The translations under genes were made by a program, and so were the position numbers. 64,000 nt of DNA, from the NCBI GenBank assembly GCA_023231475.1, contig JALJEE010001331.1, positions 1 through 64,000 on the forward strand, given 5' to 3'. Below the pieces are notes generated by a model that saw only the letters and a program-made list of their open reading frames with translations, made no database searches and was not told where the DNA came from. Shown here piece by piece: positions 4,192 through 47,043 of the stretch. The first letter of the stretch is position 1, and every line of letters begins with the position of its first letter. This DNA comes from Seison nebaliae. Taxonomy: Eukaryota.

Positions 4192-5165
4192 GTAAATTAT
4201 TTACTTATTCTTATTTATTTATTTAAAGTAAGAAAGAAAGAGAGAAAAAAAAAATATAAAATAAATCTGTAAATTCCCATACAGGGATAATTCAAACGGC
4301 ACTCTCGAGGAGAATCCTCAGAGCACTAGACTGATTTGTTTCTATCAGGGTCTTGGCAGAATTTAAGGTGGCTACCTGTTCATCACGTAACCGAGACACT
4401 GGTGAGAACGAGAAGATGAACTCACGAAATTCAGTAGAAAGAGGTGAGTGCTTTATCGAATAATACACGATGGTGTGAAAAAAGATAGAATGATTCGATG
4501 TGATACAGCGTTGAATGAAGGATGGGATGTCGGGGAAGAGCCACGATGACAAAAAGTTGTCTAGGACGTGGAAAATGCGTCGACGATATAAAATAGGAAA
4601 TGGAGGAATATCGGTGACTGTGAAAATAAGATTCCGATTAATTCTTCGGAAGCAGCCGACGGACGATATTGTTGTAAGTTCGGTCCATTCTGAGGAATGA
4701 GCTGTTGGTGACGAATAATAATGAGTCGAGTCCATATAATGGGAGGACAAGTGAAGAGAAAACACGAATTCGGATTGAGAGTAGAAGATACTTCGATCGT
4801 GTTGCCAATGAGAATGATGTGCGGACGAAGTTATTTCGGATGTGATCGAGTGAGTCGGATGCCATCATTTTCGAATCGAGAAGAACTCCTAGGAACGTAT
4901 GATTTGGGGCAGGAGAAAGAGAGATATTCCTCAGGAGAGAGACAATAGTTTTCGTCGGATTTATCTTAACTGATATTTCCGCCTAGAGAATCTGTGCTCT
5001 TTCGCGAATTCGAATGAGTTGTCGAGGAGAAGTAGGAAATATGAGAATGTCATCAATGTATGCGAGTGCTACGGGAATTCGCATGCCCTTAATGTTGGTG
5101 TTATAAAGTTCATTCAATTGGAGAATGACCCAGTGAAGAGTGAGCGAAAAGCCAAGGTCCCAATT
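4192..5165 (-). mobile_element. Decayed 5'-truncated non-LTR (LINE-like) retrotransposon, reverse transcriptase C-terminal half
   Basis: The minus strand reads LGPWL/FSLTL..ALAYIDDILIF (YIDD at 5049-5060)..VKINPTKT..FLGVLLDSK..RIRVFSSLVLPLYG..YNNIVRRLL, which are RT palm/thumb motifs of LINEs. It has an in-frame stop at 4983-4985, frameshifts, and a (TAAA)n-like 3' tail near 4195-4225. Confidence 0.8.
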
Positions 5166-7627: not shown

Positions 7628-7881
7628 GAGAAGGAATTCAAGAATATTATTATGAAAAGTAACATTTTATTCACTTATATTTACTCACAATTACAATAAA
7701 CAATTTTCTATCAGATTTTTTATCTTTATAACAATCTTTTCTTTGAATATCATATTATGAGATCACTGAATATAAATGTTTATCAAACAAAAAGAGAAAC
7801 TTAAAAAATCATTTTTCTTTCAACATGTTTTTTTTGTCAACAATTGTTATTATTAAATTATTACTTATTAAGAATATGATT

Positions 7882-7976
7882 CATTATTACGATTCATTAT
7901 TATGAAGCATTATTATGATTCATTATTATGAACCATTATTACGATTAATTATTATGAAGCATTATTATGATTCATT
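7882..7976. repeat. 13-bp minisatellite, about 7 copies of cattattaYga(tt/ag/ac)
   Basis: Read directly: cattattacgatt cattattatgaag cattattatgatt cattattatgaac cattattacgatt aattattatgaag cattattatgatt. Confidence 0.9.
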
Positions 7977-8278
7977 TAACCCTACTAGGTAAATGGTTTA
8001 CGAAAAATTGGTGTAACATGTAATTAATTCGCAAATAATTTCATAATCATAAGACCATTTACGCCATGTGTTTTCAGATAAAATAAATCACATCCTTGTT
8101 GCATGAATCTAATTAATTTAAGGATTAAATTATGAATTAATTAGGTGAGTATTCGAATAATCTTTATTAAAAGTATTGGAATACGATAATAATATAATAA
8201 AATTAAGGTTATTGGACAAACCTTTGAAATTTGTTGTAAAACTATTCTAAAATTTGAGAAAGATAAAAAATTGAAAAA

Positions 8279-11200
8279 TTACAATGTCCAAATCGGATCT
8301 TCATTTAAATCACCCATATTCCGTGAGATAATTGATTTTGTTGGTTGGTATGGTGGTTTCCTAACTTGTTGCCCTTGTTGAAACCAAGCTAACTTTCTTA
8401 TATCATTCGTTCGACCATCATAAGGTGATAATATTTTAGAGCCAGCACGTATTTCTGGTGACCAAGCCAAACATGAATTTAAGAAAAATTTGAAATCTTC
8501 CGACCATTTTCCATCATCCGGTTCTTTTATTTGAGTTTCAATATAATTCTGAGGTGTCTTAGTTAACCTTAATTTAATATTGTTATGATTCCTACCTAAT
8601 TCTACCGCTGTTTTCCCTTGTGAGAATATATTCCTTACCAAGTGAATATCCTGATGAACATATGGTTCTTGTCTGGTCAATAGTTTAAATAAGGTCGCTC
8701 CATAACTAAACCAATCACAATTGTAACTATAACCTTTTCCCGGTTCTCGTTCTGCTTCAAATATTTCTGGTGCCATATATCCGGCAATGCCTTTCGCTGA
8801 ATACGTTCTTCCATATTTGTCAACTCGAGTCGCAAATTGATAGTCGATAATCTTTGGTCGACCTTCTACATCTAATAAGACATTCATTGGACTCAACATT
8901 CGATGTATTATCCCAATTTCATGTAAACGATCTAATCCATTGTGTATTTCAACCGCATAATATTTCAAATCTTCTTCATCCAACGTCTGTCGGTTATAAG
9001 AAGAATTATCTGATAACTCTTGTAAAGAGCCTCCACATATATATTCAAAACCCACGTAAATTCTTTGAGGATCTTCTTCAACGAAAAACATTTGACATAA
9101 ATTTTCATGTCTAATTCGTTGGAGGTCATCCGACTTTAACAAATCAAAATATTTTCTATTTTTCTTAGTTGACGGACGATCTTTGTCATAGACTTTCACG
9201 CAAATCACATCTTTCAAATCTCGATACCATGCTAAATATAAGGAACTATTATGATGCAAAGGATGTGAATTCCCATCATGGTATTTCTTCTCGTCGTTGA
9301 CGGAATGCAAGGTTTTAAAAGCATAAACTGAAAACTTTTCTTTTCCTAAATCATATACGCTAGAAGTGGTTGATTCTATATTTTTTCGAATTTTATGTTT
9401 CTGATACCGATGCATATCTTCCCGATGTAACTGCTGTAACATTGCTTGTCTTTGCTGCTCAGCCAATTTCACTTGATCAATATTACTCTGAAGATTTTTG
9501 GATTGGTCGTCAGGTGAAAATTTTCGATAATCCTTCGAATGGTCAAACATTCCCAAATCAACACCTTTCAACACGTCGGCATCAGGTTTCCGATACTTTA
9601 TCAGATCTACATTAGTTATACGTTGTCCATTCTGACTATCTACTTCTGAATCACTAACATCTATAATAACTTTCTTTATTCGATGATTCAGATGTGGTTT
9701 GTCTGCTCCTTCAATTTTAGTTAATCGATATTCTTGATCGTCTGAATTATCTTCATCGATTACTCTCACTAATTTTCGACGTGGTTTCTTAATTTCTTGT
9801 TTACCATACTTTTTATCGAAGAAATCTTTTTCGAAAACTAAACTTGGTGTGCTTAAAGTTCTTTTAAAAATCGAACGCTGAGTTGGGTAATCTTTTGAGT
9901 AATCTCGTGAATAATTATTCGAATAATTTCGAGAGTAATTTTTCGAATAATCTTGTGAATAATCTCGAGAATAATCTTTGGAATAATCTCTGGAATAATC
10001 ATTAATATCTTCACTATTCAAAGTTGTCTCATCACCAGAATTCATGGGAATTCTTTTATATTTTTTAATAACTTGAGCTCGTTGAATTGGATCATATATT
10101 CGTTTTTTGATTGTTGTAACGTATTTCTTTGTGGTACTTTTTGGTGGTGCCACTACCGATTTACTATGTTCATGTTTGTTTTTCGGTTGTTTCATTTTAT
10201 AATCTCTAATTCTCATTTGTTCAATTTGATGTTGATTTTCAGCTTCATTTACAATTTGATGAATAAGATCAATTCCATGTCGTATTTTATTAATATCCTC
10301 TTGTTTCTTCGCTAATTCATTATCGTTCTCATAACGGAAACCATTTAATTTGTCTTCCAATTCCTTCATTTTCTTCTTCAATTCTTTATTCATTCTCAAC
10401 TTATCTTCCATTTCTTTCTTTAATCTGTCCAATGTTATACTAATCTCAACTTCTTCTTCTTTTCTTATTTTACCATACGTCTCTTGTTGTTGTTTATATT
10501 GGATTTTTGCCTCTTCATACTGTTCTATGTAATAATTATTCCAATCTTCTTTCGTCATATCATTCAATTCTTTAAAATCTTTTCTTAATTTTTCTATAAT
10601 TTCTGGTAAAATCGATTTATAATATTCTTGACTGAATGTTGTAGAGAATTTCTTTTGTGCCTCCAATTCATTGATTAATGCTAAATGAACATCATTCTCT
10701 TCATTGATCTTTCTTCTTAAATGTTGATTCGTCAATTCTAAATCGGTTTGCTTCCGATGTTCATCATCAATTGTCAATCTACTCTCTTCAATCTGTTTCG
10801 TTAATCTTTCGATTTCTTTCTCATATTCATTCACTTTCCCCAATTTGGCTTCTTGTGTTGACTCCAAAAGATTCTTTTTATCAATTAATTCTTTCAATAA
10901 ACTTTCTAGTAATCGAATTTTTGATCTTTGATCTTTCCTTTCCACTTCCAAATGAACATTACGATCACGCCATAATTCGCCCATTCGTTTCGCTCTTTGA
11001 TATTGAACGTCAATTCTTGCTTGATCTACTGTCGATTTTGTTAATCGATTTTTTTCATCATCTAAACGTTTGTCATCCTTCAATTTTTCTTTATCAGATT
11101 TTTCAAATAGTTTTACTTTTATTTCATTCATGTCCATCATTAAACGCTCCTGAATCTCTTCCAAAGATTTAATGTTTTGTATTAAACTCGTTAATCGTCC

Positions 11201-11629
11201 ATTCAATAACTTCAATTCTTGTTTTTCCGTTTCAGCTTGATCTCTTATCTTCTGGACTTCTTGCACTTGATAATTAAGGAATTCATTTTCTTTCAATTCA
11301 GCATTTTGAAGTTCATTTAAATTCGTTAAAGATTTTGATTGAGAGATTTCATTACGTTTATACTTTCCTCTCCCATTATATTTCCCATCATATTGAGTAT
11401 TGCGCACAATTGGAGATAATTCTTCTAAAGAATCATTGTTGCTTGATGAATTGGTATGGTAATGATAATAGTGATGTTGACGGGTAGGTGAATCATTCTC
11501 TATATTCTCAGGAATTGATGTAGAAGAGCCTCCTTTCAATAATGTGGAAGAATAAGGTGTCCGCGAGATAACAGTTACACCAGGTAATTCTTCAACAAGT
11601 ACTGCGGAGGAAGTATTGACAAATGTCAT
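8279..11629 (-). CDS. Intronless 1116-aa protein: intermediate-filament rod domain fused to a C-terminal kinase-fold (pseudokinase) domain
   Basis: IF coil 1A signature EKQELKLLNGRLTSLIQNIKSLE and L12/coil 2 signature YYKSILPEIIEKLRKDF..DWNNYY. Kinase motifs are CVK, HENL, FEYICGGSL, IIHRMLSPMNVLLD, DYQ, GIAGYMAPE, DWFSYGATLF and CLAWSPEIR. Confidence 0.85.
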   Translation of the reverse strand: MTFVNTSSAVLVEELPGVTVISRTPYSSTLLKGGSSTSIPENIENDSPTRQHHYYHYHTNSSSNNDSLEELSPIVRNTQYDGKYNGRGKYKRNEISQSKSLTNLNELQNAELKENEFLNYQVQEVQKIRDQAETEKQELKLLNGRLTSLIQNIKSLEEIQERLMMDMNEIKVKLFEKSDKEKLKDDKRLDDEKNRLTKSTVDQARIDVQYQRAKRMGELWRDRNVHLEVERKDQRSKIRLLESLLKELIDKKNLLESTQEAKLGKVNEYEKEIERLTKQIEESRLTIDDEHRKQTDLELTNQHLRRKINEENDVHLALINELEAQKKFSTTFSQEYYKSILPEIIEKLRKDFKELNDMTKEDWNNYYIEQYEEAKIQYKQQQETYGKIRKEEEVEISITLDRLKKEMEDKLRMNKELKKKMKELEDKLNGFRYENDNELAKKQEDINKIRHGIDLIHQIVNEAENQHQIEQMRIRDYKMKQPKNKHEHSKSVVAPPKSTTKKYVTTIKKRIYDPIQRAQVIKKYKRIPMNSGDETTLNSEDINDYSRDYSKDYSRDYSQDYSKNYSRNYSNNYSRDYSKDYPTQRSIFKRTLSTPSLVFEKDFFDKKYGKQEIKKPRRKLVRVIDEDNSDDQEYRLTKIEGADKPHLNHRIKKVIIDVSDSEVDSQNGQRITNVDLIKYRKPDADVLKGVDLGMFDHSKDYRKFSPDDQSKNLQSNIDQVKLAEQQRQAMLQQLHREDMHRYQKHKIRKNIESTTSSVYDLGKEKFSVYAFKTLHSVNDEKKYHDGNSHPLHHNSSLYLAWYRDLKDVICVKVYDKDRPSTKKNRKYFDLLKSDDLQRIRHENLCQMFFVEEDPQRIYVGFEYICGGSLQELSDNSSYNRQTLDEEDLKYYAVEIHNGLDRLHEIGIIHRMLSPMNVLLDVEGRPKIIDYQFATRVDKYGRTYSAKGIAGYMAPEIFEAEREPGKGYSYNCDWFSYGATLFKLLTRQEPYVHQDIHLVRNIFSQGKTAVELGRNHNNIKLRLTKTPQNYIETQIKEPDDGKWSEDFKFFLNSCLAWSPEIRAGSKILSPYDGRTNDIRKLAWFQQGQQVRKPPYQPTKSIISRNMGDLNEDPIWTL
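9887..10000 (-). repeat. In-frame 12-bp tandem repeat encoding about 9-10 copies of (D/N)YS(R/K/Q/N)
   Basis: Translation DYSRDYSKDYSRDYSQDYSKNYSRNYSNNYSRDYSKDYP. Confidence 0.9.
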
Positions 11630-13968
11630 ATTCTCTCATAAGAAAAAATATTTTCTAAAAATTAATAAATTGTTTCTTTACGAAAACGGTTCGGGTCAAA
11701 ATACGAACGTCAGTAGTACGTTGTACAACTGACAATTGAATAGAATTAGTAAAATTGTATAAAAATAATATTCGTATAACTTTTCTTACAATTAAACATT
11801 GGTCTATTATATTCTTCAATCGTTTTCATTGAAATCAATTATTATTGATAATATTATTGGAAACACATTGATGTTATTATCAAAAATTTTAACTTCATTC
11901 CTACATAAAAAAACTGTTCGATGTTCTCATATATACTCATACTTTCAATTCATGGTCTCTCAATAATAGAATGAATATTAATTTGCATGCATCACCTTCA
12001 ATAGCTACCTCTCATTTCCAAATAAACAGGTCCCGACTACTCAAACAATAACTTATTCTCAATAAGTGTCATTCTCAAATAACAATGCAGAAACTTTAAA
12101 TTATTTTTAATAAATTTTAAAGAAAATTTTACTATCGATTATGATGACCAAAAAAATCTCAGTGACATAATTGTTACTAGTGATATTGATGCGAAGTGCG
12201 AAGGGAAATTTTGGAAAACGACTGGATACTTTTAAACATTATTATTAAACTATTATGATAATTTTCGTTCAATTCTTCTTTTATCGAATTAATTTCATTA
12301 ATAAATATTTCTAATTCGCACAAAATTAGTAGAAATCTGAATGAATTGAGATCAGTTACCTAATAAAAATCGAATTACACATGGACCAATAATAATAACC
12401 GATTATGAAAGTTATCAAAGATTATCAGCTTATCAGAGATTATGTAAAAAATTTTCTATTGAACCTCCGTTAATTATCTGGAGAAAATTTATTTGTTTAT
12501 GATTAATCAAATTATGTAATGTCATTCATTCCCTTCACATAAACATAACTACGAGAACGTTAATGTGCCATCTGGAAAGAAGGACGTAACTTTTGAGAGG
12601 CTTAAATCTTCTTCCTATTTCACAATTCTCACACCAAAAAGGAAATAGACAATATTTTGGAAATTAAGTATAATCTCATTTTAATTATTGTCATTAATCG
12701 TCTGCGTTCCAATACAACTTACTACCTGTAGAAATTAGACGGAAAATTCTAATATAAAATCTTGCCGATCAGTTGCGATGAAAGGTGGAATGAATGGTAA
12801 AAATACCGAAGAACATCTGAAAATCAAATTACCTTCTCTCACTATGTAAATTTTGTGGAAGAATAAATAAATAGAAGAGAATGTTCTCTTTTTTCTAATT
12901 TCATAAATGATAATGGAATGAAATCATAAAGAATCATCGATTCTTTAACAATATCATCATTGACGTCGCGTAAGAAATGAAAGTGAAATCATCACGTTTT
13001 GATGTCATTTTTAAGAGAAAGAAATTGAATATGTAAGCAAGTGTCTATGTATATATATGTGGATGATGATGATGTTGGTGACGATGATGATTGGAATAAT
13101 TGTTATTGTTCTTATTATTGGAACTCTTATCAATGTTGATTTCGTTTTAACATTTCCCGTCAATGAATTATTTTAATGTTTAGTGTAACCATATCGTACA
13201 TGACTCACATAGTCGAATGTGCTTATGTAGATGAGTTTATTTGTCATATAACTGATGGAAGATTATGGAATAAGACATAATAAATTTCATCTTTCCCATT
13301 TCATTTCACATTTCCTTTCGAACCATCATAAAATTTATGTATATGTCATTCCTTCACTGTCGTTGTGTGTTTGTATGTTATATAATAGACAATAGAAACC
13401 TTCCAATGTACTTATATTACCAATGATATCGACTAATAATAAGAGAAATTGCATTATCTCTAACGAGAATTACTAATAACAAAAAGAATTTTATTCGTTT
13501 CACATTTATCGATAAGTAAGATAGTTTTAATTGAATTTAATTCAACATATAATTTAGAAATAATTATACTACTACTATTTTACTATTGTAAATACTAATT
13601 AGTCATAAGTCATACGATTTATTAAAGTGGTATGTAATACTGTTATATTATATACGTAATAATAATAATATTTTATTTTGAAAGTAATTGAGATTTTCAG
13701 AAGAAACTTAAACTCATGAGAATATTGGTGTAAAAAATAACTCTATCAAAATCATTTATTTCGTTTAATAAATAAAATGGAAAATATTTTTATGAAAAAT
13801 AATAATTGTCTTTCTTCGTTTGGGGGTAGCGATTGATTGACGATTAATTCCATTCAAATGGGGAAAAAGAGTTAATTGGAAAATTGAAATTATAACGATT
13901 GAAACAATATGTTGAACATGTGGAAATTGGCCGATAAAAATTATATTTGTGGATTTAGAAGTGTTCGT

Positions 13969-15084: not shown

Positions 15085-18000
15085 TTAATCAATCGTTAAA
15101 TTATCGTTATTGTTTTCCGTATTTTGTATTGTCGAGGCTAACGATAGACGAGGTAATCCCGGTTCCAAAAAGGGAGAGAAATCTTCGTTTCGTGAATAAT
15201 AGATATGATTGTTCATTGGGAAATTGTTCGTTTTCTTTAGGTCATGACATTCACTTGATTCGTTGTTGGAGGTGGAATAATCGAAACTGAGTTTTTTCGA
15301 ATCCGTCAGAAATGATGTGGTACTAGCTGACATTTGATTATCATAATTCAAATGAGCTTCTCCTTCTGTTATTGATGATTCCTCAAATCGTTGTTGTTGA
15401 TATTGATATGAAGGATTGGTGATCGCATAGAAGGGAGTGACATGATTATCTTTCCATTTGGATAATTCTTTCGATAATGTTTTAATATTTTCACTATTCT
15501 TTATTCGTTGCATTGTTGTCTCATTGTCATTAGGGTTATTTCCTGAATTACATTCTGGAATATTCTGATTCACGGTATTAGTAGTAGTTGTAGGAGAAAG
15601 TGGAAGATTGGAGCAATTGCTAATCATCGATTTGTCATTAATAAAAAGAAATTTCAAATGCTCTTCAGCTTGTTCGATAGCTGCATCAATTTTGTTAACT
15701 GTGGAATTTAATGGAGAATCGAACTTCCAATCTTCAGGTAATAATTTAGGATGTAAATTGGCGTTGACAGAAAATACTGAACGAGAACGTTTTCCGTTGT
15801 CGATGGAAGTCCCATTAATTTTCTTGGTAAGATTTCTGATGAATTCAATATTATTATTCGTATCCAAATTCTTCATTCTTCCATCGATCTCTTCCGTTTT
15901 ATCATGTTGACTCTCATCTTCATCTTCTAATATTGTCACTTTGATATTATTCTTCTTATCGTCGACACTTAACATTGATTGTTTCGTTGAATTGATTTGA
16001 TGAGCTTTTGGAGAAGTATTCATAATATCAGTCAATGATGAAGAGGAAGCAAATGACATTTTTGAAAGAATATTATTGTCATTTTGGGTACTAATTGACT
16101 TATGCAGAAAACCATCTGATGGTTTCAATCGGGAAGAACGTCGTATAAAACATCGAACTGATATGATCATAATGATTGAAATGATTATCAAACTAATGAT
16201 TATTACAATCAATAACGTCGTTGATCGATGGAAACTTACCGTTCCATTTAAAATTGCATTATATTCATCATCTTTCCTCTTATTCTCATCCATCGGATCA
16301 TCCGCCAATAAATTGTCGGTTAATTTTCCTGTTTCTATTAAATTCTTATCGTTCGTTTCATAATATAATGCATTGAATGAATGAGTTAAAAGTAAGTTGA
16401 CTTTAACATAATTATTATATTTTTCTTTCGAAACAATTTGCATATTTTTATTATGAAATTCAAGTTTCATTTCATCAGACATCTTCGGGATAATAATTGA
16501 TAATTTGATGATAATTTTGAATAGATTTCTCTCATTCTTTACATTCATTCCATTTAACATATTTTCCGATAGAAGAAACTTGAAATAAATTAATCGATTT
16601 TCTGAATATTTATATTTCAATCGATACATATTGTCATCCAAATAATTGTCATTGGAACGATCAAATAAATTTAACGTTCTATTCTCACGAATTTCCACGT
16701 CGATACCGATTAGGGAAATATCTGTCAAATATTGTTCATTCGTCGGTCGTAATGATAATAATCCATACAACATATCACCAAAATGAAAGTTGTTAATTTC
16801 ATTTTTTTCCATACTATTCTCTTCATAAAACGGAAAAGTTTTCATCGAAAACGTCAAATCGAATTCCGATAGTAATTCTAAAAATTTTATCATAAATAAC
16901 TTTATGAAGAATTTTCCAAAGCAAAATTTAAAAAAACTTTTCGGACAAGTTGATATCTGTTTCACTTTTATAATTTCAAGTTTTTCGTTGTTGATTTCTT
17001 CTCGTAGAATTAAAGGTTTCTTTTCAAAATATCTACATTCCAACATCGTACAATTACAGACGACATGCTAGAAAATACATATAATTATTATTAATGGAAA
17101 AATGGAGATAAAAATTGATAATAACAATAGTTCTTTTCGTTTGTTCCGAGGTACACGATAAAGAATTTACGTCGAATAAGAAGTTATCGAAATTAGATAA
17201 TTTCGTGGACGTTCTCTCTTTTTCATAAGACAATAAGAATTGTTCCAATTGTAAATTGATATTCATTTGTAACTGACATGAATTCGAATTTTCTAAATGT
17301 TTCATTGATGAATTAATTTCATGAAACTTCGTATCAACTAATCCGTCTTGATTTTTAAATAAAATTTGTTTCAGGTTTATAATCTTGGTCCAATTTTGTA
17401 ATGCATTTATTAATCGAAATTCGATAATATGAGGTAATTCATTGTTATCGATCAGTTCATTGACAGATATGGACGAACGTTGGAAATACAACGGAAACAA
17501 GAAGGTAATTAATCTTTCGAAGTTCTTCTCAATCTCATAACTCATTTTTGGTAATTCACGAGTTGTTCCGTTAATAAATTTTATGAGGCATTCCACAAGT
17601 ATTCTTTCTTGACTTTCTGATTCTCCATCAAGTCTCAGAGACAAATTTAACTTCTCATTAATTCTTGTTAACCAAATATTCTTCTGATTAATATTCAACT
17701 GAATATTCTTCTTCGGTGCAATCGGTTCATTTAAGAAATGTTTTAGTTTGAGAGTAATATCAGTAAAATTAAATTTCGATAAATATTTCTTCATCGATCC
17801 CAATGAACGGCGATCTTTTTCTGTCAATTTTTCGGGCGGTATCAATTGAATCAATAATTCATCATTCCCACTCACCAAAGTATATTGAGCATTCGTTAAA
17901 ACTATTTTATAAACATGTTCACTCCTTTAAAAAAAAGTTAATTATATTATTATTCGAAAAGTTCCACAAAATGATTCTAACTTGTTTAATGGCGTAACAA

Positions 18001-21000
18001 TTTGACAGGGTTGAAGACTTTCGCCTTCATCAAAATATATTTGGTGAGAGAATATGACTTGTTCATTTAACATCGTCAAACAATCGATATTAGCGTGATG
18101 TTGAAGATTACCAATTCGTTTGACCAGCAATTCGCCCACTTGTATTTCCGTTTTAACATAATTCAATTCCCATGTTGAATAATCTAAATAAATGGAAATG
18201 GATTAATGGAATTGAGAGAATAAATAATGAGCATTTCTAACCATTTGTTAATGCAGAAACGATATCTATATAATCTTTTTGATTGATATTCTTCAAATTT
18301 AAAATTGGTGCTGGAACTTTAATGGAATTTTTATTTTTCTCAATTTTAGCGAACGAATTCGAAACAGTTGACACCGATGTAACAATAGAGATGGTGGACG
18401 GTAGACGTTGTTTTAAGAATTGGATGACCGACCATTGAATGATGAAAGTGAATTCTTTTCGTCGACAAGAGTTCTGTCCATTACAGAGGAAGAATGTAAA
18501 ACGGTCGTTTGTAGGAATAAGATTAGATCGTTCGTCCATTTGATGATATTGAGAATATCGACGATATCGATTATTTTCTTCACTCAATAACGAATGGTAA
18601 TCCAATTCATAAAATATTTTCCTATTATTTATTTCGATTTGAGAGAACATGGAAACGATTGAATTATCTCTCATGACTCGACCATATTTCGGTTGTGTTT
18701 GAATCTTATAAACGATATTAGAGATTGACCCGTATCGTTTATTTGAATTAATTGCCATTAATTCATTTTGTGTAATAACACGTCCATATGAATCATTTAA
18801 TGATAATGGATTATTGCTCAATTGAAAGATGTGAGCGAATCCTTTGTTTTTCAGCAATTCGATTTCATTTAATAAATAATTTCGACAATGAAAATACTCT
18901 TTCAAATCTATTTTAATGATAATGTCTATCCAATTTAATCGATTCCATTTCTTCCCATTCACATAAAATACAATTGATGAATTAGTTGTGAAAAATTTGA
19001 GGGAAATTGAAATTTTATTCTTTGTGGATTTTGGCTCTTTCATAATCATTCTTAATCTTCCTTTACCTCTCAACCAATCGTGCAATGAAATTTGATTAGT
19101 TACTCGCCACAAATGATTACGAGAACTCTCTAAATTAAAAGATCTACCCGATTTTAAAATGAGATAGATTGATTTATATTTTTCCAAATCGTTTTCCTTC
19201 TCAATTTCTAAAGATGAATTAGTTGAATAATAATAATCGATAATTTGGTTGTTCTTACATGATCCATCTCTTGTGTTCCATTTGTAAATCCATTCAGATG
19301 ATATCGTCATTGAAACATTCTCCTTTCTTACAATTTCCACGGATTGTTTCATTTCCATATCATATGCTATTTTATTTAATCCATCGTCAATTGTAAAGTT
19401 CATGAAGAAATTATCATAATAATTCCGATGAATATTGAGACAAATTGTATTTCTTAAAATATCACTGATTTTAAACGAGTAAATGGCGTTTCCTTTCTCA
19501 AACAAGCATTGACTTTTCGTATTATTTTTGAATAAATAAACTGATTCGATAAAAGATATTGTTAAAAAGAGATAATTAAAGAACAAACCTGATGGATTTC
19601 TTGAAATTAAATTAACATTTAATTCTTCGGGCGAATTGTCGACGTCATATATGAAGAATGCTTCGGTCATATCGAAACAATAACATTTAGTTTTGTTAAT
19701 TTTCCTATTCAATTGAATTTTCGTTAGTTTACTCCCGTGAATTTGAGGTTTCATCGATATTCTTTGAATTTCATAATGAAATTTTTGTTTTGAAAGTTTT
19801 TGTTGATTCGTTGAACAAATGATGTCGAATTCAAACCAACCAATTTGACGAGGTAATCGATCGGTTTTCATTCTTTTCAGTTTCAGTTTTTCTGGAAAAT
19901 CAGTAGAGAATATTTGTGGAAAAGAATTTGAATAAAACTTCTATTAATATCATTTTGAGTAAACGTTGTATTTGGAGGAATGATTTGTTCATTCAACAAC
20001 AAACTGATTTGGTTATTTGATGGATGAATAGTTCGATAAATATAAAAAATATTCGTACTCTGATTGTTATAACCATTGATTGAATACAAATAATTGTTAC
20101 TAATGATTACAGATGATTCTAAAAAGAAAATAATGAAAAGATCAGAAACTAAAAGAAAAAAATAGAACTTTCTTTCATTACCAATAATCGATTGCGTTTA
20201 ATAATAGGCAATGCATAATTCATTTGCATTTCTTCTTGCAATTTCTGATGTAATCGTTTTCGATCTTGTTCGAAGAATTCTTTAGGAAATTGAATGAAAA
20301 TTGTATAATTTTTCTTATTTTCATTTCGATCACTTAATCGTACGATGAAGAAATCTCGTTGATATTTACTTTCGATATTCAACGGATAATTCTTTTTGAA
20401 AACGAGCAAGAAATCTTTAATTTGTAAATAATTATATAGTTGTTTCATTTGAATATGATAAATTTGTTGTGTGTTTGACTGAAAAAGAATCTTTCCAAAT
20501 AATGGGAAAGCAATAAATTCGATGAAAATATCTTTCTCTTTCGTATCAGAATCTTCAATTGATTCAAATAAATTCTTAAATGCACAAAGTGATCGATTGG
20601 ACGAGAAATAGTTGCAAAAATATCTAAAATTAGTTTCATCGAATCGACTAAAATAGGGTTCATCGTCATCAATTTTCTACAAATAATGAATAATTCTTTT
20701 AAGTCAAATAATATTGGAACTTTAATATTGATAATTAATTTCATTGATTCGTTACTTTGTTGTATTCCATCGAAAGCTTTCAAGTGAATAGTCGCACTTT
20801 TCGTTTTACCTAACGGTTTTATATAAACCTTCTTCTCTAAAATATCCGTCAACTTAAACCGTTGGAGTGATATCTTCGGATCTAGAAACGAATAATAAAA
20901 TAAATTTCATTTAAACGGAAGTTTTAAACTTTGTTGATTATAAATTATGTAAGAATCATCATTTCCCATATGCACGATGGACAATTCGCTCAATTCACTA

Positions 21001-23581
21001 TCATGATCTTTGATATTGAACAAATCTTTTGGAAGGAGAATATTCTCATTCTCATTTATATGAAACTCATAAAGATATTCGGTAGAATTTCCGGTTTTGT
21101 AAACTTTGACGTTTTCCTTAAATGGCTGGGCAATTGTAGGGGCGATATTGTTAATTGGCTTTATTAGGATCGTTAATATTTGATCAGTTAAACGATTATC
21201 ATTCGAATCAATTACGTCAAAATGGATTTTATCAACAATCATGGAAGTTCCAATTTCTTTCGGTGCTTCATATCGTAATTGAAGATTATTTAAGTTATTC
21301 GTTGTAAACATATCACCAATAGTCAACGCAGTGATTGTCAAGTCTTCATCAGTAAATGTCTGGGATGATGTTAATTGCAATTGACCATAAACCGGTAATT
21401 TTATTAGAATAAATCGAAGATTTTTATCATTGTCTTTATAACAAATCGATTGATTTGTAATTGTAATTATCGAATTTTCTGGTATGCCATTTAACGTAAT
21501 CTCATCCAATTCATCATATGACAATTCTTGCAATCTATCATATATTAATAATGTACAACCGTTTTTTAATTCGGGAACTGTATCATCCATGTTATCCAAC
21601 CAACTTTTCTTATCGATTATCGATTCGAGATTCATTATATTCGATGAAGAAATATATTCATTCCAATCGAATGGTAATCGAAATTTTAAAAGTAATCGAA
21701 CCAAATTTAATCGATCACTCACTTCCACATAAATTTTCGTTTTTAAATTATTAATTTGTTGAATATCGTTTTCGATTGAATAGATATTGGAAAATTTTAA
21801 TAAGAAATCTTTATTCTTCATTTGGTCTAGATTCATCATTCGATCTGTTGATCTCACTCGATATCTATCCGTCGCGTCCTAGAAAAGAAGAAATTCGAAG
21901 AGATTAGACTTGCAGATATGGGAGGTTTCTTTTCAAAAAATTTAGAATTACCTGAAGAGAAGGCGAAGAAATATGCGAAATATTATAAAATGGAAAGAGA
22001 GGAAGTGAAAAATTGTTATAAGGATTTCATTATCGACTGTCCTACCGGCGAAATGAATTTTGATACATTTCATAATGTTAGGAAATGTATATAATTCGCA
22101 TATTTTTAGAAAAGTATTTGAAAATAGATTATGAAAACTGAATATTCAACAATAGAAGTGAGGAATATATCTCGTTTTTTATTTAACGCAATCGATCTCA
22201 ATGGCGATGGAATTTTCAATTTTTCCGATTATTTGGCAGTAATTCAAAAAGTGAAATCTAAACACAATTTTGATAAGTTATCTGTATTATTCAATATTTT
22301 AGATACGGAAAAAAAAAGTTCTTAATTTTTTGCCATAATTCTCTCCTAATTCATTCCTTAGAGCTGATTACTTATCGAGATCTTTGTATTGTGTTCAAAG
22401 AATTATTCTTATTATTGGGAGAAGATGAATCTGAAATCATAAACTCGATTAGTATCTGTGTTACAGCTCTGTATCAAGAACTTAATCTGAGGAAGAAGTC
22501 AAATATAAATGCTGAACAATTCTATCAATTATCTCTGAATCGATGAACTTAATTTAATTCAATGAAAATTAAATTTTAAACTAACTTGTTTAATGATGAA
22601 ATATAATTGTTGTAGATTGGTTGTTAAATCGTATATACTCTCTAGACATCCGCTAATATTGAAATGGAAATTAGAGAATAATTCCTTTTCTTCATAATTT
22701 CCAACAGTTAGAGAATTCTGTTGTAATCGATTATCGTCCAATAACTGTAGTTGCACTTGACATTGTGCTGTTTCAATTTCATGATTCTTAATATAAGTTG
22801 AATTAAAGAATGTTGGAGCCCAAAGATCGGTTGGAAGTATGAGAAGTCGAAAATCGAAGTTCAGTTTCTGCAGTTTCTCCAATGATGATATGGGCCATTT
22901 CCGTTTCAAATGTTGGAATGTTCGACTTTTAATAAGTTGCTGAATGTTAATTTTTATTTTGAATTGTAATTTCCCAAGAAAATATAAAATGATTTTCGAT
23001 GAAGACAATTCGTTGTTTGTCGCATTTTTGAAATATATCAATTTTCTCCATTTGATTTGATTGTGAGATACAGTTTGAATATAAACCTTTCCATGATTCA
23101 ATTGTTTCTGTGAAAAAGCATAATCAGATACTTCTCTAACATGTCTTTCTCCATCGACAAATAGCTGAATATTCAAAGGAAGTGAAGTAATTTGATAAAT
23201 TAGGAAGTTTTCGAATTCTTGTAATTGGACAATCTTTCTTAAAATGACTACTTCTTTCTGATTCCAAAGTTGCTTATCTTGATGCATATGATTAAATATG
23301 TCGAATATAGTCAAAGTATATATCTGTTGTTCGTTCAATAACTTGATATTGTTATTTTGAAGAATTTGCTCTTTAAACAATTGTGCTGCACCTTCTTCGG
23401 GTAAAAGGATTTTTCTTCTCTTCAACGATTGTTGAAGAAGAACATTGTTACGAGAATGTAATGAATTAAGTTGATATATTCCATTGTTGGATATTGATGA
23501 CGAAGAGAATAAGTTGCAGTAATATCGATCAATTGGAATAATGGAAATTATTAATATGAAACTCAATATGGATTGCATCAT
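15085..23581 (-). CDS. FRAS1/FREM-family extracellular matrix protein: signal peptide, CSPG (NG2-type) repeats, Calx-beta-like region, single TM, cytoplasmic tail; at least 9 exons
   Basis: Nine track ORFs join in frame via GTT..AG introns (707, 48, 44, 50, 47, 58, 57, 58 nt). CSPG motifs include LPVYGQL..FTTNNL..LRY..D.IHFDVID..IKPINNIAP, QPKYG..FSQIEINNRKIFY..DRFTF and FIIQWSVIQF. The TM segment is LLIVIIISLIIISIIMIISV. Confidence 0.75.
21918..22546 (+). CDS. Neuronal calcium sensor / recoverin-family EF-hand protein of about 177 aa, nested antisense in intron 1 of the FREM-like gene
   Basis: Exons are 21918-22076, 22128-22317 and 22362-22546. It has an N-myristoylation-type start MGGFFS, the NCS EF1 motif YKDFIIDCPTG, EF2 DLNGDGIFNFSDY, and KL..LF..LD before EF3. 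Confidence 0.85.
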
Positions 23582-32851: not shown

Positions 32852-33644
32852 TTATTGAATATGAAATTGATTAGATGATTCTTCTTTCGTTTTATGATCA
32901 GCGGGATTTGCTCTCATTTCATAATTCGTAATAACAACTCCTTCTTGCTTCCCCTGCAAAAGATGATAAATGAGAACATTTGAATTATCCAAAGAACGAA
33001 CTTGAAGAAAATCGCCTTTAAGTCCAATATAATAAACTTTTGTAGTTGTATCGTCATCACCAGAATTGTTTGATGGAATGAATAATGTCAATGAATAAAC
33101 ATTATTAAATTTCGTCACTCTGTGAGAGAAAGAATGAGAATAATAATTAAAAGAATTAAGAACTTCAATGGATATTCGAGAACGCCATTCTCATCATATT
33201 GCAAATCGAATTTCTGTTCACACTTCTTTGATTTAATGGCATCGAACGACAGTTGTGAATCGTTCACATTTTTAAACAATTCAACACAATCCGGATGTTC
33301 ATCACCTGGTGGTGCCATAATAATGATCGACTTCACTTTCACTAATCCGTTGAAGACGATATGAATCAACAATTCGCTATCACAATCACTTTCCACAAAC
33401 TTCCATCATCTCTCAATAATTATCATAAGAGGAAAAATCAAACTTTCGTTCTATCCATTCTCTCAGCATATGATCGAAAGAGATTCAGACAAGAATTATC
33501 AATTTTTTCATTGAAACATTTCGTTTGAAGATTATCAATTTTCTTGTAGAGAGAATATGCATTTTCCATCTCCTCTTTTGTCGTATGATCCAATTCATTA
33601 TGGTCATGATGACAACCACCATGATGATGATGGGGATGACTCAT
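32852..33644 (-). CDS. PITHD1: PITH domain-containing protein 1 (4 exons)
   Basis: Motifs MSHPHHHHGGCHH, YSLYKKID..CFNE, FVESDCDSELLIHIVFNGLVKVKSIII, LEYPLKVTKFNNV, TKVYYIGLKG and NYEMRANPADH. Introns are 33400-33443, 33120-33163 and 32954-33001. Confidence 0.93.
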
Positions 33645-33879
33645 TATCACAAAAATATTAAATAAATCCTCTGCCTTTATGGGATCATAAATTTTCGAAG
33701 AAATTGAAAAAATCACATAAATGGAAATTTCATGAAATTGAAATATTCATCCAGAATTATTTTCAAATAAATCTTATTAAATTAAAAATTTGAAAAAATT
33801 TAAAAATTTACATTTCTATTTGTGGCTTCGTCTCGGAAAAGTATTTTCAATTTTCCGAAAGATAATTCATAATAACTCA

Positions 33880-36419
33880 ATGGATTTTGAAATAGTTACC
33901 TTTTATTTTCTTCTATTTTCAAGAATGATATTGTAAAATCAAAAGATCAATCTTTCTAATTCTTTAGATTTTCCTTCTTACATCTTACAAGATGGAAATG
34001 TGACAATTCTATTTGAATGTCCATTAATTCCAATACCGAAAGAAAAGTTTCTCTTAATCATTTCTTCTTAATCAATCATTTAATCAGTTGTTCTTATGAT
34101 ACGAATGAAAGTCAACCGACTTGGTTCGATTATGCCACACCAAATGTTTGTCAATTTCAAACACTTCTCCTATATTTCCCATTTGTTTTCAGTTCAATTT
34201 AATCGATGTTAGTCTCATCGATGTAGTTCTATTAACGAATGTCAATTCAATGTTGGCATTACCATTTTTGATGAATGATAATGGATTTAATGGAAGAATC
34301 TTTTGCACTGAACCTGTCTTTCGAATTGGAAAGTTCACCATTCATTAACTTTCCAATACCTTCAATTCCTTTTTAGAAACACTTTATTCAATTTTAGTAA
34401 ATGGTTACATTCCAAACCTGTCATCAGATTAATCGATCGAGGGAAATATCAAACGTTATTTCTTTTATCATTTCTTATTTCAACAATAAGGTCATATAGT
34501 TCTCAGAATTGTAATAAGGAGTATTATAATAGACGAATAATTTCCAAATGTTTATCAAAAATTGACCAAATTTATTTCAAACAATTAATTGTTGGTTGAT
34601 TTAATTGAAATTGGGAAGACTTTATTGGAAGCTTTTCTAATTAGCATCTGAACGATTATATTTGTCTCGAAGCCGTTTCCTCTGGATATTCATTAGGATC
34701 ATGTAACTGGCTCGTTTATGTTGGAACGGAATTGTTAGATTCAACAAAATTGAATTTCCTCGAAGCAACTTATCCATTTCGACGACCAATTAAATTCTCT
34801 TATATCTCTCATTCTGCCGCAGTTCCTGACAATTTTATTTCAGTTAGAATCTCCATTCTTTCAAACATTGTAATGACTTAATAATTAAAAAAGACTTTTG
34901 ACGATTCAGTTTTCAATAATGTCAATTATACGTTATTGGGATCCGGTACGAAATCTATCGAATGTTTGTCCATTGATGAAGTTTCAAATATTATTGAAAA
35001 GAAAATTAGTTAAATATTTTGTTGATTCGATAATTAATTTTGAAAATTCGATTTTTTTCTAGGAAGTTGCGTTGATATGCAAACAAATATTTTAATACCA
35101 ACTCATCTATTTGCGACAACTTTACTGATTTTGGAGAATTTGTATAGAATTTTCCTGAACGATATAAAAAATAATGATTTTGGAAATATTCCTCCAATCT
35201 ATCTCATCGGAGAGAATATACATTCTGACTTATGTTATGCCACTATCATGTCAGAATGGTTATCATCACGAATGCAAGACATCGCATTCCTTCCAGAAAT
35301 CCCATTCACATTCGAAACTTTGAAGAATTTATCGATTTTGAAAATTTTTAAGTCGATTGATTCTGATGATTTCCGCACATCATTTAAATCTCCTTGTATT
35401 ATTCTGACTGGTAATTCCACATATTTTTGTGGAGAATTATTAGAAGTAATCAAATTATGGGGCAAGTCAAAAAATAATCATGTAATTCTTACCGATCCCA
35501 TTAATTATAATGAATATATGGAAAGTGGATGGAAACAATCGAATTTGTCGGTTTCTTATATACCAATTGAAACACGTTTAACTTGCAAACAAATCTTTCA
35601 ACGGACCAATGCGTCATTAATTTTTGGTTGTTCGTCTCTAAAGGACGAGTGGCGATCGATCGAATCAAAATTGGAAAATAAATCATTTTATGTTATCGAT
35701 CAAAACGATCATTTTCATTTTCCCATTAATCAAAAGTACGAAATCGTACTCATCGATAAACAGGTTTATATTTTAAAATAATTAAATTTTTATTATATAA
35801 TTTCTCGTAATTAGTTAATTAATAATTGTAGAATGAAATTATTAAGAAATAATTCGACAGAGAAATCGAATTCTATCGTATATTATGGATTGTTGAAGAA
35901 CGTTAAATTATCTAATCGTTGTATTACTCCGGTTAGAACTTTGGACAATCAAATTCATTAATATTTTATTGAAATTTCATGAAAATTTTAAATTAATTTT
36001 TATAGACAACATCTGATGTTGGAGAAGAAACATTAAAAGATTTGGTGAAACGAAAATTTTTTGGAACAATCAACATTTCGATATTGATCTGGAAATTTTT
36101 AAAAGTTTTTTTTTCTTAAAGTTAAAACAGAAATTTAATGAAAGTTACAAATCAGGCGAATTATGAACCAGAAATAAAGAAAGTTACAGATTATCGAGAA
36201 TTCATCTTGTGCATCGTTAACTTTTTCTGGAGAATGTTCATGTTTAATTTTATTTTCCAGAATGACGGTTTAGCGACATGTGAAATTAATATGGTGGAAA
36301 AGGAAGGGAAGTCAATCAAATGGAAAAGTAAAATAAATTTTGGGAAGAATTGTAAAGGAATGGATCGGAAAGCAGTTAGTTCCATCTGTCTGACATGTCT
36401 GACTTCCTTCCACATATAA
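33880..36419 (+). CDS. INTS9: Integrator complex subunit 9 (MBL/beta-CASP fold), about 13 exons
   Basis: The spliced product contains LIDVSLIDVVLLTN..MLALPF..GFNGRIFCTEP..IG, CLSKI, SSGYSLGSCNW, NILIP, IMSEWLS..Q..FLPEIPF, F..PCIILTG and LWGKSKNNHVILTDP, matching INTS9. About 12 short GTT..AG introns. Confidence 0.88.
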
Positions 36420-36437: not shown

Positions 36438-39400
36438 CTATTTCTCTGTTTGGGGAACTGCCAAACAATTGTCTATCAATGACTGTTGCATCAATATGAA
36501 TTGAGATCTTTCCATTAAATCCGATTTCTTTACGAGTTCGGGCGATGACGAATTGTTAATAGATGAAATATCTTTTAACAAATTATCAGCATCCTTAAAT
36601 AAAAAATCATCATCAATATCATCCAGAATTGAGTCGTTTGAACTTTTATCACTTCCGTTATTTTGTTCTTTCGGTGTAACGGACGACAAATCAGTTTGTT
36701 TCGAATTGTATTTCAAATTTGTTTCATCAAAACTATTCATATTTTTTTCGACATCCACTTCCGTACTCTGATATCTAGGAGAAGAGGAGAAGTTATTGAA
36801 ATCCTTTGAAAAATAATTGATATTGTTATTCGTTTTTTTATAAGGTGTGTTAATATCAATATTATGATTGTTTTGATGATAATTATGTTTGTTGGAATCT
36901 TGAGATGGTCCTTTACTAGAATATTCCGTCATATTATTTACAATTAATTTATTGGATGATGCAGAAATAATAGTTTGTTTCATATGAGGATCATTTGGAG
37001 GAACGGGTTTATTCTCCATCTTTTTCATAACATTAGATGACATAGAATCGGGAGTTAATGGAATGTAAGGAGATATCATCGGAAATGGTGGTTGAGGCAT
37101 CGGAAATAAATTTCTTTGCATTATTGACATTGGCGGATTTCCAGGATTAGGTGGCGGTCCCGGTCCCATATAAGGGGGAAGCATATATTGATTATTCATT
37201 TGATTCCATTGCATCATATGATTATATTGTTGATGATGATGTTGTTGTTGTTGCTGTTGTTGTTGATAATGCAGTTGGAAATATTGTTGTTGATTTTTCG
37301 GTTGTTGATTATTCAATGTCAATTGATTTCGTTTAGAAGGTTTTAAAATTTTAGATTGATGTGATATTTCTAAATTAGTTTTAACGGGCCAAGTGGCGAA
37401 TCCATTATTCGACATTTGTTGGGATATCGACTTATTTCGATTATAACCAAATTTCATATATTGCGGTGTAGTGGGATGTGAAGGACAATTGGGATATGGT
37501 TGTTGTTGTTGTTGTGGTGATGGTTGTTGAGATGGAATTGGTGATAATTTGGATGGATGAAGAAATGGTTGTTTCATAAACGATTGATTTTGTATTCTAC
37601 TTATTGTTTTCGTTGATTTATTTTTCTCATTAACTTTCGTCGGTTTTTCAATTTCCGTCGTTTTATTCTCTAAATTCTTTTTACTCAATTCTTTCTTTTT
37701 CTGCATTTTCTGATGTTCATTATAATTCGCTAACGTACCAGTAATCGATGCAACTTCTCTTATCAGATCAGCTGATTGTTTATTTCGATTAATCAGCAAT
37801 TTAGAATTCTCTAAATTCGATGATTGACTACAATCACTATCTTTTATTAGAATATCTTTCTTCGATCTTTTTAATGAGGTTGCATCATCTCTCGATAAGT
37901 TACCAGCTAGTTTTGGATTAACTGGGAAGAAAGAGAATTGAAAACGATTCAATTCTGGATGGACAATATAATACATTTTCAATTCATTCATTTTATGTAG
38001 TAAAATCTTCTTAGTAATCCAATACTGAGTGATTGGAACAATTCCAACACTAGCCTCCTCATATAATTGGGAACTTGGTGTAGAAATACAAAAAAAATCG
38101 TTAGTAGTCCTCACAATTTTCATTGTCATATTATCGAATGCATTATCTTTCCTTATGAATGATAAAAGTAATTGTAATTTAATAATTAAATCATGATCGG
38201 ATATAGAAGGATAATTGGCTTCGAAGAACCATTCCTTCTCTTGGGCAATCTGTCGAGCAAACGGTCTAGTTAGCCAATTATAATGAAGTAAAGAATTGAG
38301 TAGACGATTTTGTAGGACTGTTAATCGATAATTGAAAATTACATCAGTTTTCTTATAAACTGTATTTTCGATCGACGAAATTTTTTTCCCTTGTAAATTT
38401 CTTAAAGAATCTTGTTGTAAACAATCTAATAATAAGATATCTAATAAAGCCGTATCATCTTCCGTTAATATCATCGAAATATTCATTTTAATATATTTGA
38501 TGTTACACTTCATAGTTGTTGGTCTTATTCGTTTTATATCAACATTCTCTTTCAAAAGATCATAAGTCTTCTTCTCATTACCTTCCTCGTCTACATTAAT
38601 GAACTGACGGACAGCGATCCATTCTTGTTTCATATATCGATCCCCAATGAAATATTGTGATATGACCGTTTCACTTTTTCGGATTTCATTCACTTCCGCA
38701 CTCGTCCATTTGTAATGACGTCGATGGCGTAATCGGAAAATTGTTGTTTGGTCATACATTTTCACTATGCCGAATTTCCCCATAATAAAATTACATTGCT
38801 AAATTTAAAAAGAAAAAAAGATAGAAAGTTTTCCGATGAATAAAATGAAACTTCTTCGATCATTTTCTTGTTACTACTATCTTCTTGGAATGGCATCGAT
38901 CCAGTCAACATGATGAAAGCGATAACACCACTCGCCCAAATATCGACTTTTCGTGGATCATATGAATGTCCTTTCAATATTTCGGGAGCTGCATATGCCT
39001 TCGAACCACAAAAAGTTCGGCTTAAACTAACCGGTGCCATATCGTCAAAATAAGTTTCACAATTATGACCACTGAAATAAGCATCTTTTATTCTTAGAAA
39101 AAGAATGATATTCTTCTCTTCTGAATCATCCATGTAAGCGATTTCGCGTCTTCGTTTCTCTAAAGCTGAAGTGTTTCGAGAACCATAAATCTCTTTTCTT
39201 AAAAAATCTTTACAATCTTTTGGAATATTAAAAGCATTGCTCGCTTTCTCCAAATAGAGTTGTGTAGCGAAACCGAAATCTGTCAATTTCAAATTTTGTT
39301 TGTCATCAAACAAAATATTCTCACATTTCAAATCGCGATGAGCAATATTATTAGAATGAATGTAATCTAATGCTTCCAACAACTGTTTCATCCATCGTCT

Positions 39401-40252
39401 CACCAAATAGAATTGAATTGACGAATTTTGTTGGATATAAGTCAATGCGTCACCACCAGACGCAAATTCGATAATTGAATATACGTTTGCCGAACCCATA
39501 AAACTATCGTAGAATTGAACGATGTTCTCATGTTTCAATTGTGGCCATAGAAGTAGTTCTCTAGGTAAGAATTTGCGACAGAAATCTTTCGGTGCTAATT
39601 TCAAATTAATCACTTTTACAGCACAAACTTGATTATTATATGGTAAGAGGAAAGTTAATCTTTCCTTCAACTTCTGAATAATTTCACATTTAACCGAATT
39701 CGTCTTAATTTGCCCTTTCTCTTCCTCCATGTCAATATCCAACAATTGAGTAACATGATCCGTATTATGTTTCAGGTAAGTTTCTGCACATTTCGCTTTA
39801 ATTTTCAACGTATCACACGCACGATATACTCGAGAATAAGAGCCTTGTCCTAACGCTTCTCGTAATTTAAGACATCTGGAATTCGTTTCTATATTATAAC
39901 CAATTAGCGTATCATCGTCGAAATTTAAATCTCTATCACTTATCGAACTTTGCAATTCATTATTCTCATCATTCTTAATCTCCGAATTCTCATTATTGTT
40001 AATCTTCATTTTATCTGTCTTTTTGATACTAGTGATACGTAAAGAAGAATCTTTCAAATGAGAAAGATTTGGACGAAAAATCGCACGCACAATTCTTCCA
40101 ATTGTTTGCACATTATCTTCATTATCATAAATTGATAAGGCTTCTCTCAGACGTTGTTGAAGATACTGTTCATCTGGAACGACGGCAATGTGTCCTGAAT
40201 CCCGATCAATAATCATTAATGGTCGTGCATTAACGGTGGAAGGTTCATTCAT
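36438..40252 (-). CDS. Testis-specific Ser/Thr kinase (TSSK) family protein of about 1250 aa, with large insertions and a Q/P/N-rich tail; 2 exons
   Basis: A 53-nt intron at 38799-38851 (GTTTC..TAG) joins the two track ORFs. TSSK motifs are LGQGSYS, APKDFCRKFLPRE, HRDLKCEN, DFGFA, LSRTFCGSKAYAAPEIL and YDPRKVDIW; a subdomain XI-like LLNSLLHYNWLTRP..WF lies in exon 2. Confidence 0.85.
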
Positions 40253-46700: not shown

Positions 46701-47043
46701 ATTACTATTTTGATCAATCAACATCTTGGGAAGTTTCGATTTTCACTAAATGGAATTATAGTTATGAAACGGTATCTCTTGTAATTATTTTAGGAGAGTC
46801 CCGCTATTTCAAGGGAACGCAACCGTTTTTGTATATCTCACACGATTTTCGATGCCCATGATATCTGGCATTTCCTATCAGCATTGGCGATGTTTTTATT
46901 ATTCATGGTTAACTGAAAGAATTCTTTTTTTAGAAAATCTAATTTAACATTTCGTTTCTTCCTCTCATCAAAAATAACAGTGTCTATTAACGATCGACGA
47001 TGATCTACTCAACGTACCTAAAACGAGAATTCGTGTGTTCTAA
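43786..47043 (+). CDS. SID-1 transmembrane family (SIDT/CHUP-1-like) protein, about 15 exons
   Basis: Motifs [90 protein letters not shown] and LTIDDDL..RIRVF*. The start codon and 5' exons are less certain. Confidence 0.9.

Follow-up and report, generated by a model that had tools for sequence, protein, structure and literature searches.

Kinases regulate intermediate filament (IF) proteins and are in turn scaffolded by them in trans, and an open reading frame (ORF) from Seison nebaliae raises the question of whether the two partners can be joined in a single polypeptide. The ORF lies at positions 8279–11629 on the reverse strand of the window, by which we mean the whole 64,000-nucleotide (nt) stretch of DNA analyzed here (contig JALJEE010001331.1 of assembly GCA_023231475.1, positions 1–64,000). 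Its predicted product of 1116 residues reads, from the N terminus, as a head, an IF rod, a linker, and a pseudokinase domain of the AGC group. On balance, we favor the view that this protein joins ordinary IFs as a minor, co-assembling subunit and carries its predicted-inactive kinase domain as a docking arm, held by a linker of ≈280 residues.

An earlier interpretation of the same DNA, made without database searches and referred to below as the sequence-only reading, had described one uninterrupted frame of 3351 nt, and that description stands: the frame has a single stop, against 42–130 stops in each of the remaining five frames. The whole ORF is found inside single 7.1-kb contigs from sequencing runs X1, X2, and X3, with 0 differing letters and at the depth of its flanks, which excludes an assembly join and indicates a single-copy locus; contiguity of the two halves is thus upheld at the level of genomic DNA, although runs X1–X4 may be the window's own source and so do not count as independent support. 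Run X4 has one contig break in the ORF, with an overlap at 10397–10426. Run X1 has the character of DNA, and runs X6 and X7 gave 0 records here. The exact 1116-residue protein is also present in NCBI/nr as a one-member cluster. By sequence, a candidate polyadenylation signal, AATAAA, is located 111 nt past the stop codon (8163–8168, on the same strand, as are all features of the ORF given below). The GC content of the window is ≈30%, and the neighboring genes are of animal type and bear introns. A 13-nt tandem array of ≈8 copies occupies 7875–7976, 300 nt beyond the stop codon.

The first half of the question is whether the N-terminal coiled coil belongs to the IF family. Judged by its sequence, the segment of residues 135–487 (10169–11227) is a genuine IF rod and not a generic coiled coil. 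The sequence-only reading had named the lack of any Filament match as grounds for rejecting an IF rod; scanned alone against Pfam, the rod instead has a Filament match (40.1 bits, E 4.5e-10) that barely attains the cut-off of 40. Three of seven rod sub-pieces match the profile as well, and they do so colinearly (residues 135–257 to profile positions 2–124, 261–453 to 93–279, and 341–453 to 168–279). The four shorter sub-pieces do not match Filament, nor does any of five pieces of a 1335-residue protein from the same window that served as a control; this long coiled-coil protein without Filament similarity is encoded by a 4.4-kb open frame at 56215–60648 on the forward strand. All of the 10 best family-bearing matches in an Atlas feature search with the rod are Filament proteins, with a top score of 0.90 that is rated borderline. 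The heptad power of coils 1A, 1B, and 2 is equalled by only 3, 4, and 5 of 500 shuffles, respectively, compared with 197 of 500 for the linker. The Filament match uses 319 residues for 278 profile positions, an excess that is expected from a coil 1B longer by 42 residues, as found in lamins and protostome cytoplasmic IFs (PMC4829535; PMC2075511). In a PDB search, lamin A gives an alignment of equal length on both sides (3–189 versus 5–191, E 2.6), and the matches to PUR-alpha and MmoZ from the PDB were rejected as chance.

The class of the rod rests on a hand comparison with two printed alignment rows, one from a cytoplasmic IF and one from a lamin. The former is unnamed in the excerpt of the supplement, and we take it to be a protostome cytoplasmic IF from its motifs. 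Counted by hand, the distance from Asn143 in coil 1A to Tyr477 at the rod end is 334 residues, the same as in this cytoplasmic row (PMC4448529 supplement), and ten inner landmarks are in register with it: Asp296, His315, Leu322, Lys390, Asn414, Leu417, Leu424, Ile446, Arg450, and Ile474. The coil 1A consensus LNxR..YI.KV..LE of the IF family is represented by EKQEL..LNGRL...I..I..LE, with a Leu in place of the Tyr and the Arg of the LNGR motif (residues 142–145, 11195–11206) retained. The L12/coil 2 start reads YYKSIL (10607–10624), with a double aromatic as in the cytoplasmic row, and the L12 His-to-Leu spacing of 26 residues by hand count is close to that of the cytoplasmic row (27) rather than the lamin row (30). 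Together, the coil 1B register and the L12 aromatics and spacing suggest a rod of the protostome cytoplasmic type. The rod ends in IRDYK (residues 474–478, 10196–10210), in which the Ile and Tyr are in register and the LLEGEE is lost; the Pfam match ends at profile position 279 of 313. The register and the Filament match thus bear out the IF rod of the sequence-only reading, including its coil 1A and L12/coil 2 motifs and its degenerate end. Ahead of the rod, the head (residues 1–134, 11228–11629) is rich in Ser and Thr, has one CDK-type SPTR site at residues 47–50, and has no match in Pfam. A single-sequence AlphaFold model of the full-length protein is poor (predicted local distance difference test, pLDDT, of 39) and was used for helix extent only; in it, a helix predicted from about residue 100 continues into coil 1A.

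The second half of the question concerns the C-terminal domain (residues 765–1116, 8282–9337), which matches Pfam Pkinase at residues 795–1063 in the whole-protein scan (E 8.8e-36) and has RSK, ROCK, STK32A, and PKA as its best PDB sequence matches. A model built from a 20-sequence alignment (pLDDT 78; predicted template-modelling score, pTM, 0.81) retrieves AGC structures in a structure search, a result that depends on an alignment itself composed of kinases. According to this model, the domain has an AGC kinase fold. Its motifs were compared in an alignment that includes 48 further kinase domains. No Gly loop is left, its place being taken by a segment at 9245–9319 that carries an insertion of ≈12 residues and is modelled with low confidence. 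The β3 Lys of the VAIK type is kept as Lys812 (9194–9196), and the αC Glu, which is present in 47 of the 48 other domains (the 48th being a fragment), is Lys832 (9134–9136). The HRD motif reads HRM (8897–8905) within a catalytic loop HRMLSPMN, so that Met911 stands where all 48 other domains have Asp; the catalytic-loop Lys is lost as well (Ser913), and Asn916 is kept. The DFG motif reads DYQ (8837–8845) with the Mg-binding Asp929 retained. Also retained are APE (8765–8773), the αF Asp, and the hinge, and the P+1 Thr is an Ile. In sum, two of five active-kinase residues remain (Lys812 and Asp929), and the Gly loop, αC Glu, and HRD Asp do not. From these losses and established kinase chemistry, we predict that the domain is a pseudokinase that carries out no phosphotransfer.

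The sequence-only reading had placed the HRM and DYQ motifs exactly, had noted the missing Gly loop and the surviving Lys and APE, and had called the domain a pseudokinase from the loss of the HRD Asp; the αC Glu and the catalytic-loop Lys are lost as well. It needs amendment on two further points. The AGC-like fold it described as complete is so for the core; the AGC tail, by contrast, is shortened, with a PxxP motif (PPYQP, 8342–8356) followed 20 residues on by the end of the protein, without a hydrophobic motif. And although DYQ does replace DFG at that site, it is probably a variant of the DFN of STK32-type kinases instead of a decayed DFG. The DFN-VAT of STK32C parallels DYQ-FAT in the Seison protein, whose identity with STK32 is 29% over 206 residues, and DFN is conserved in STK32s (bioRxiv 10.1101/2020.03.04.976555). 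STK32C is the only one of the 48 domains that shares both loop lengths with the Seison domain (26 residues in the activation segment and 17 from APE to αF). A FastTree phylogeny of 49 domains puts the latter in a clade containing STK32 (SH support 0.857), on a long branch next to two more long branches; left out of the tree were 13 near-identical MRCK rows and all domains below 205 bits, with the exception of four domains that served as an outgroup and a fragment that was added. The tail helix with the hydrophobic motif of STK32 is absent, and a PDB search with the C-terminal tail only returned nothing useful. An origin from GRK kinases, suggested by the GYMAPE and DWFS motifs, is favored by neither the scores nor the tree. 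We therefore assign the domain only tentatively to an STK32/YANK ancestry.

Between the two domains, in the slot of the lamin tail, lies a low-complexity linker (residues 488–764, 9338–10168) with a predicted helix at residues 708–754. Three pieces of the linker, scanned against Pfam at E ≤ 10, show no lamin-tail domain, and an Atlas feature search with the linker gave no match. As the sequence-only reading had said, the linker contains a repeat: 9.4 copies of a 12-nt unit in tandem (9888–10000) encode (D/N)YS(R/K/Q/N) ≈9 times over. Basic clusters follow the rod at residues 522 and 614, the latter, KKPRRK (residues 614–619, 9773–9790), being by its sequence a possible nuclear localization signal. 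The chance that 283 codons of linker stay open is ≈2e-10 at the stop frequency of the flanks, and none of 1000 shuffles is open (minimum, 10 stops). This chance, together with an in-frame copy in a second lineage, argues that the linker codes for protein and is no cryptic intron.

That second lineage is present as a minor component in runs X1 and X2 over 8000–11900, with synonymous sites near saturation. It consists of short contigs, found at a likeness threshold of 80%, that have a depth of 2–3.5 (14–27 for the main copy) and are 81–90% identical to the ORF. A paralog in the same genome was rejected as the source of these contigs of ≈85% identity, their depth being only ≈0.1–0.2 of single copy, and matches of 21–28 nt from other full-depth contigs were taken as chance or low complexity and not as paralogs. 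The data suggest a co-sequenced second lineage, either a related or a cryptic species. The pieces listed, all but four of the set, cover residues 1–16, 216–253, 456–538, 582–627, 649–735, and 731–863, so that one piece (456–538) crosses the rod-linker junction and another (731–863) the linker-kinase junction. Identity is 90% for the rod piece and 81–85% for the linker pieces, in which indels of 3 nt and 4 + 1 + 4 = 9 nt are net in frame. The tandem repeat seems to be present in the second lineage too, given that a hand reading of 30 loose letters at 9886 yields a YSR unit in the continuing frame. Within residues 773–852, the 38 listed differences fall on codon positions 3, 2, and 1 in the numbers 32, 0, and 6 (binomial p 1.4e-10), and 32 of the 35 changed codons are synonymous and three conservative (proportions of synonymous and nonsynonymous differences, pS and pN, of 0.76 and 0.023). 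All 14 changed codons of the Gly-loop region (773–800) are synonymous, and Lys832 is kept with a synonymous change only. The N-lobe of the kinase domain is therefore under conserving selection.

To gain insight into whether such a protein exists elsewhere, we looked for a second sequence with both parts. A homolog search with the whole protein yielded 40 non-self matches of 7979 scored candidates, all of them kinase-only; the best 149 non-self matches among 1.84 billion representative sequences are all on the kinase part; and the kinase domain matched seven of 520 shorter proteins, each a generic kinase. All of these order their matches by kinase score, so that an unrelated fusion of Filament and kinase would escape them. 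Neither rod nor linker matched any of 189 collected proteins at E < 0.3, and metagenome scans for proteins with both parts confirmed none of 46 and none of 131 pattern matches. No IF-kinase fusion is described by the papers listed in our literature searches, which covered titles and the beginnings of abstracts and had most subscription journals outside them. In the architecture survey of PMC4448529, protostome cytoplasmic IFs consist of a rod and an immunoglobulin (Ig) domain, and a PDZ-bearing lamin is called the most surprising case; the word 'kinase' is absent from its main text, and its section 6, as excerpted, gives no kinase-fold partner. Within the searches made, the novelty claimed by the sequence-only reading is upheld. 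The combination of an IF rod and a pseudokinase appears to be a new architecture made from two known families and known from two close lineages.

How might such a protein work? The established parts of our model are the single frame, the identity and register of the rod, the motif losses, and the conserving selection on the N-lobe. Because coils 1A, 1B, and 2 keep their heptads and coil 1A its Arg, the rod would form a parallel coiled-coil dimer. With the rod-end consensus reduced to Ile and Tyr-Lys, we infer that it would elongate poorly alone and would ride in, cap, or cross-link filaments of a partner IF, like nestin on vimentin; nestin co-polymerizes with vimentin (PMC2698154), and mutations of the rod end perturb vimentin assembly (PMC2119649). 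The kinase domain may bind partners without phosphotransfer, whether substrates, an active kinase, or the second copy held by the dimer, and could bind a nucleotide or cation via Lys812, Asn916, and Asp929. The Tyr/Ser repeat may act as a flexible, phospho-regulated spacer. For the broader proposal, that this is a germline, long-conserved IF subunit whose pseudokinase side arms anchor or allosterically control signaling and whose remodelled, strictly conserved N-lobe loop is a new binding surface, we judge the chances to be about even.

Parts of this arrangement have parallels in known systems. Protostome cytoplasmic IFs are alike in rod length, register, coil 1A motif, and L12 signature, but carry a rod with an Ig tail, whereas the Seison protein has no lamin-tail domain, a degenerate rod end, and a linker with a kinase fold. 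The type VI IFs (nestin, synemin, transitin, and tanabin) likewise join a rod to a long, repeat-bearing interaction tail (PMC2075511), and co-polymerization with a partner IF, to which we liken our protein, is a feature of theirs (PMC2698154). They differ in being chordate and in having a short rod, and the excerpt of PMC2075511 mentions no kinase fold in them, although a repeat of transitin is reported there to hydrolyze nucleotides. LhsLamin-C of the salmon louse, the PDZ-lamin, is a natural IF-family rod in which a signaling domain has been acquired and the tail lost (PMC4448529); it derives from a lamin, however, its PDZ is N-terminal, and a kinase fold is absent. STK32/YANK kinases share the loop lengths (26 and 17) and an amide at the Gly position of DFG, but are active, stand-alone enzymes with an HRD, a Gly loop, and a full C-terminal tail, all lost in the Seison protein, which is fused to an IF instead. 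In the LMNA-NTRK1 tumor fusion, an IF-family coil precedes a kinase (PMC6371745), yet that fusion is somatic, with a partial rod and an active tyrosine kinase, where ours is germline, conserved, and predicted dead, with a full rod. ROCK and MRCK, the top fold matches of the kinase domain, also combine an AGC domain with a long coiled coil; unlike the Seison protein, they have an active, N-terminal kinase and a coil that is not an IF rod, and the match is limited to the kinase part.

Several results weigh against the interpretation of an IF subunit with a conserved pseudokinase arm. The Filament match of the whole protein (residues 135–453, E 1.8e-7) scores 31.6 bits, under the cut-off of 40 that the rod alone only just reaches. 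Only Ile474 and Tyr477 are identical to the rod-end consensus EI..YRKLLEGEE, Lys478 replacing its Arg. When the rod was searched as a single sequence against 6838 candidates among shorter proteins, no IF was retrieved at E ≤ 10, and PDB searches gave lamin A only at E 2.2–2.6, ranked below unrelated chance matches. The placement with STK32 has an SH value of 0.857 with long branches, and RSK outscores STK32 in a PDB phmmer search (89 versus 73 bits). The second-lineage pieces are short, low in depth, preselected for a likeness of at least 80%, and not on one contig, with residues 539–571 and 628–648 uncovered among those listed. Selection was counted for residues 773–852 alone (40 of the 138 difference rows being listed), and, as the minor variants agree between the two studies, some of their material may be common.

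The most serious alternative, which we nevertheless consider unlikely, is that the IF-derived rod has left filaments altogether and now serves only to bring two pseudokinase domains together, as a dimerizing stalk or spacer, in the way that the LMNA coil is the dimerization domain of its fused kinase (PMC6371745). A degenerate rod end, and a rod too diverged for any IF to appear in single-sequence searches, would fit such a role. A simple dimerizer, however, would have no need of all 350 residues, and here the rod retains its entire length and its inner register residue for residue, the Arg of coil 1A survives, and identity in the rod piece of the second lineage is 90%. It is improbable that the frame yields separate products, an IF lacking a tail and a pseudokinase on its own, through alternative starts, splicing, or proteolysis. 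The long low-complexity linker would lend itself to this, but its open codons, the in-frame indels and 81–85% identity that mark it as coding in the second lineage, and a deposited protein record with the same 1116-residue sequence, whatever the basis of that model, speak for one polypeptide.

Quite improbable, too, is a lamin-derived nuclear protein without a CaaX motif that would put the pseudokinase in the nucleoplasm or lamina. Its long coil 1B is common to lamins (PMC4829535), and lamins without CaaX or tail exist (PMC10125929; PMC4448529). The basic clusters after the rod and the one SPTR site in the head are further points in its favor, as is the fact that lamin A is the only IF among the PDB matches listed. 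To our knowledge, though, the PDB holds no protostome cytoplasmic IF that could compete with lamin A. The L12 double aromatic and the near-cytoplasmic His-to-Leu length (26, versus 27 and, in the lamin, 30) oppose a lamin, the SPTR site is 85 residues ahead of the rod, and the C terminus reads IWTL, with no CaaX. It is very improbable that the domain is an active enzyme of an atypical kind, acting in place on filament proteins by phosphorylation or another modification, because the strong N-lobe selection, the confidently predicted fold, and the retained Lys812, Asn916, Asp929, APE, αF Asp, and hinge face a Met for a catalytic base that is Asp in 48 of 48 comparison domains, a Ser for the catalytic-loop Lys, a Lys for the αC Glu, an Ile for the P+1 Thr, and the absence of both the Gly loop and a hydrophobic motif.

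If the protein is indeed an IF subunit with a pseudokinase arm, the tail slot of IFs can accept a whole signaling module. It would offer a test case for how a pseudokinase behaves when paired on a filament, for the share of the rod-end consensus that co-assembly of an IF requires, and for the repurposing of kinase domains, here with the Gly loop swapped for a new, strongly conserved loop. As to its origin, the gene may stem from the joining of two duplicates, one of a cytoplasmic IF gene and one of an AGC kinase gene that was probably of STK32/YANK type, and the fusion would be old enough for synonymous sites to be nearly saturated between the two lineages. The sequence-only reading had taken the lack of introns as a hint of retroposition, for which we find no support. 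Long exons are common in the window, which has six further open frames of 499–1477 codons, even though the neighbors have introns. No poly(A) remnant was found, the longest run of A being 8 in the 1.2 kb downstream, nor any flanking direct repeat above 10 nt that could be a target-site duplication; old scars of either kind would be erased, which limits these negatives.

The rest of the window contains further genes and one repeat. A high-copy repeat at 4300–5100, with a contig depth 10–20 times single copy and many variants, is probably a transposon fragment, and its frames have no Pfam match. A large multi-exon gene at 15085–23581 (reverse strand), with exons of up to 2 kb, has Cadherin_3 matches and a C-terminal hydrophobic segment, and is presumably FRAS1/FREM/CSPG4-like. 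The window also has a PITH-domain gene that runs over three frames with short introns (32852–33746, reverse strand) and an exon for a Beta-Casp domain, Integrator/CPSF-like (35077–35781, forward strand). Another kinase, presumably TSSK-like, whose HRD and DFG are intact and which carries two inserts, lies at 38765–40252 on the reverse strand; directly after it, within 36438–40252 on the same strand, is a 781-residue Gln/Pro-rich frame with no Pfam match, and the two may be one gene. At 41234–43063 (reverse strand), RanBP zinc fingers and an OTU domain mark a gene that we take to be TRABID/ZRANB1-like, and a gene for a double-stranded RNA channel of the SID-1 family extends over several exons at 44070–47551 on the forward strand.

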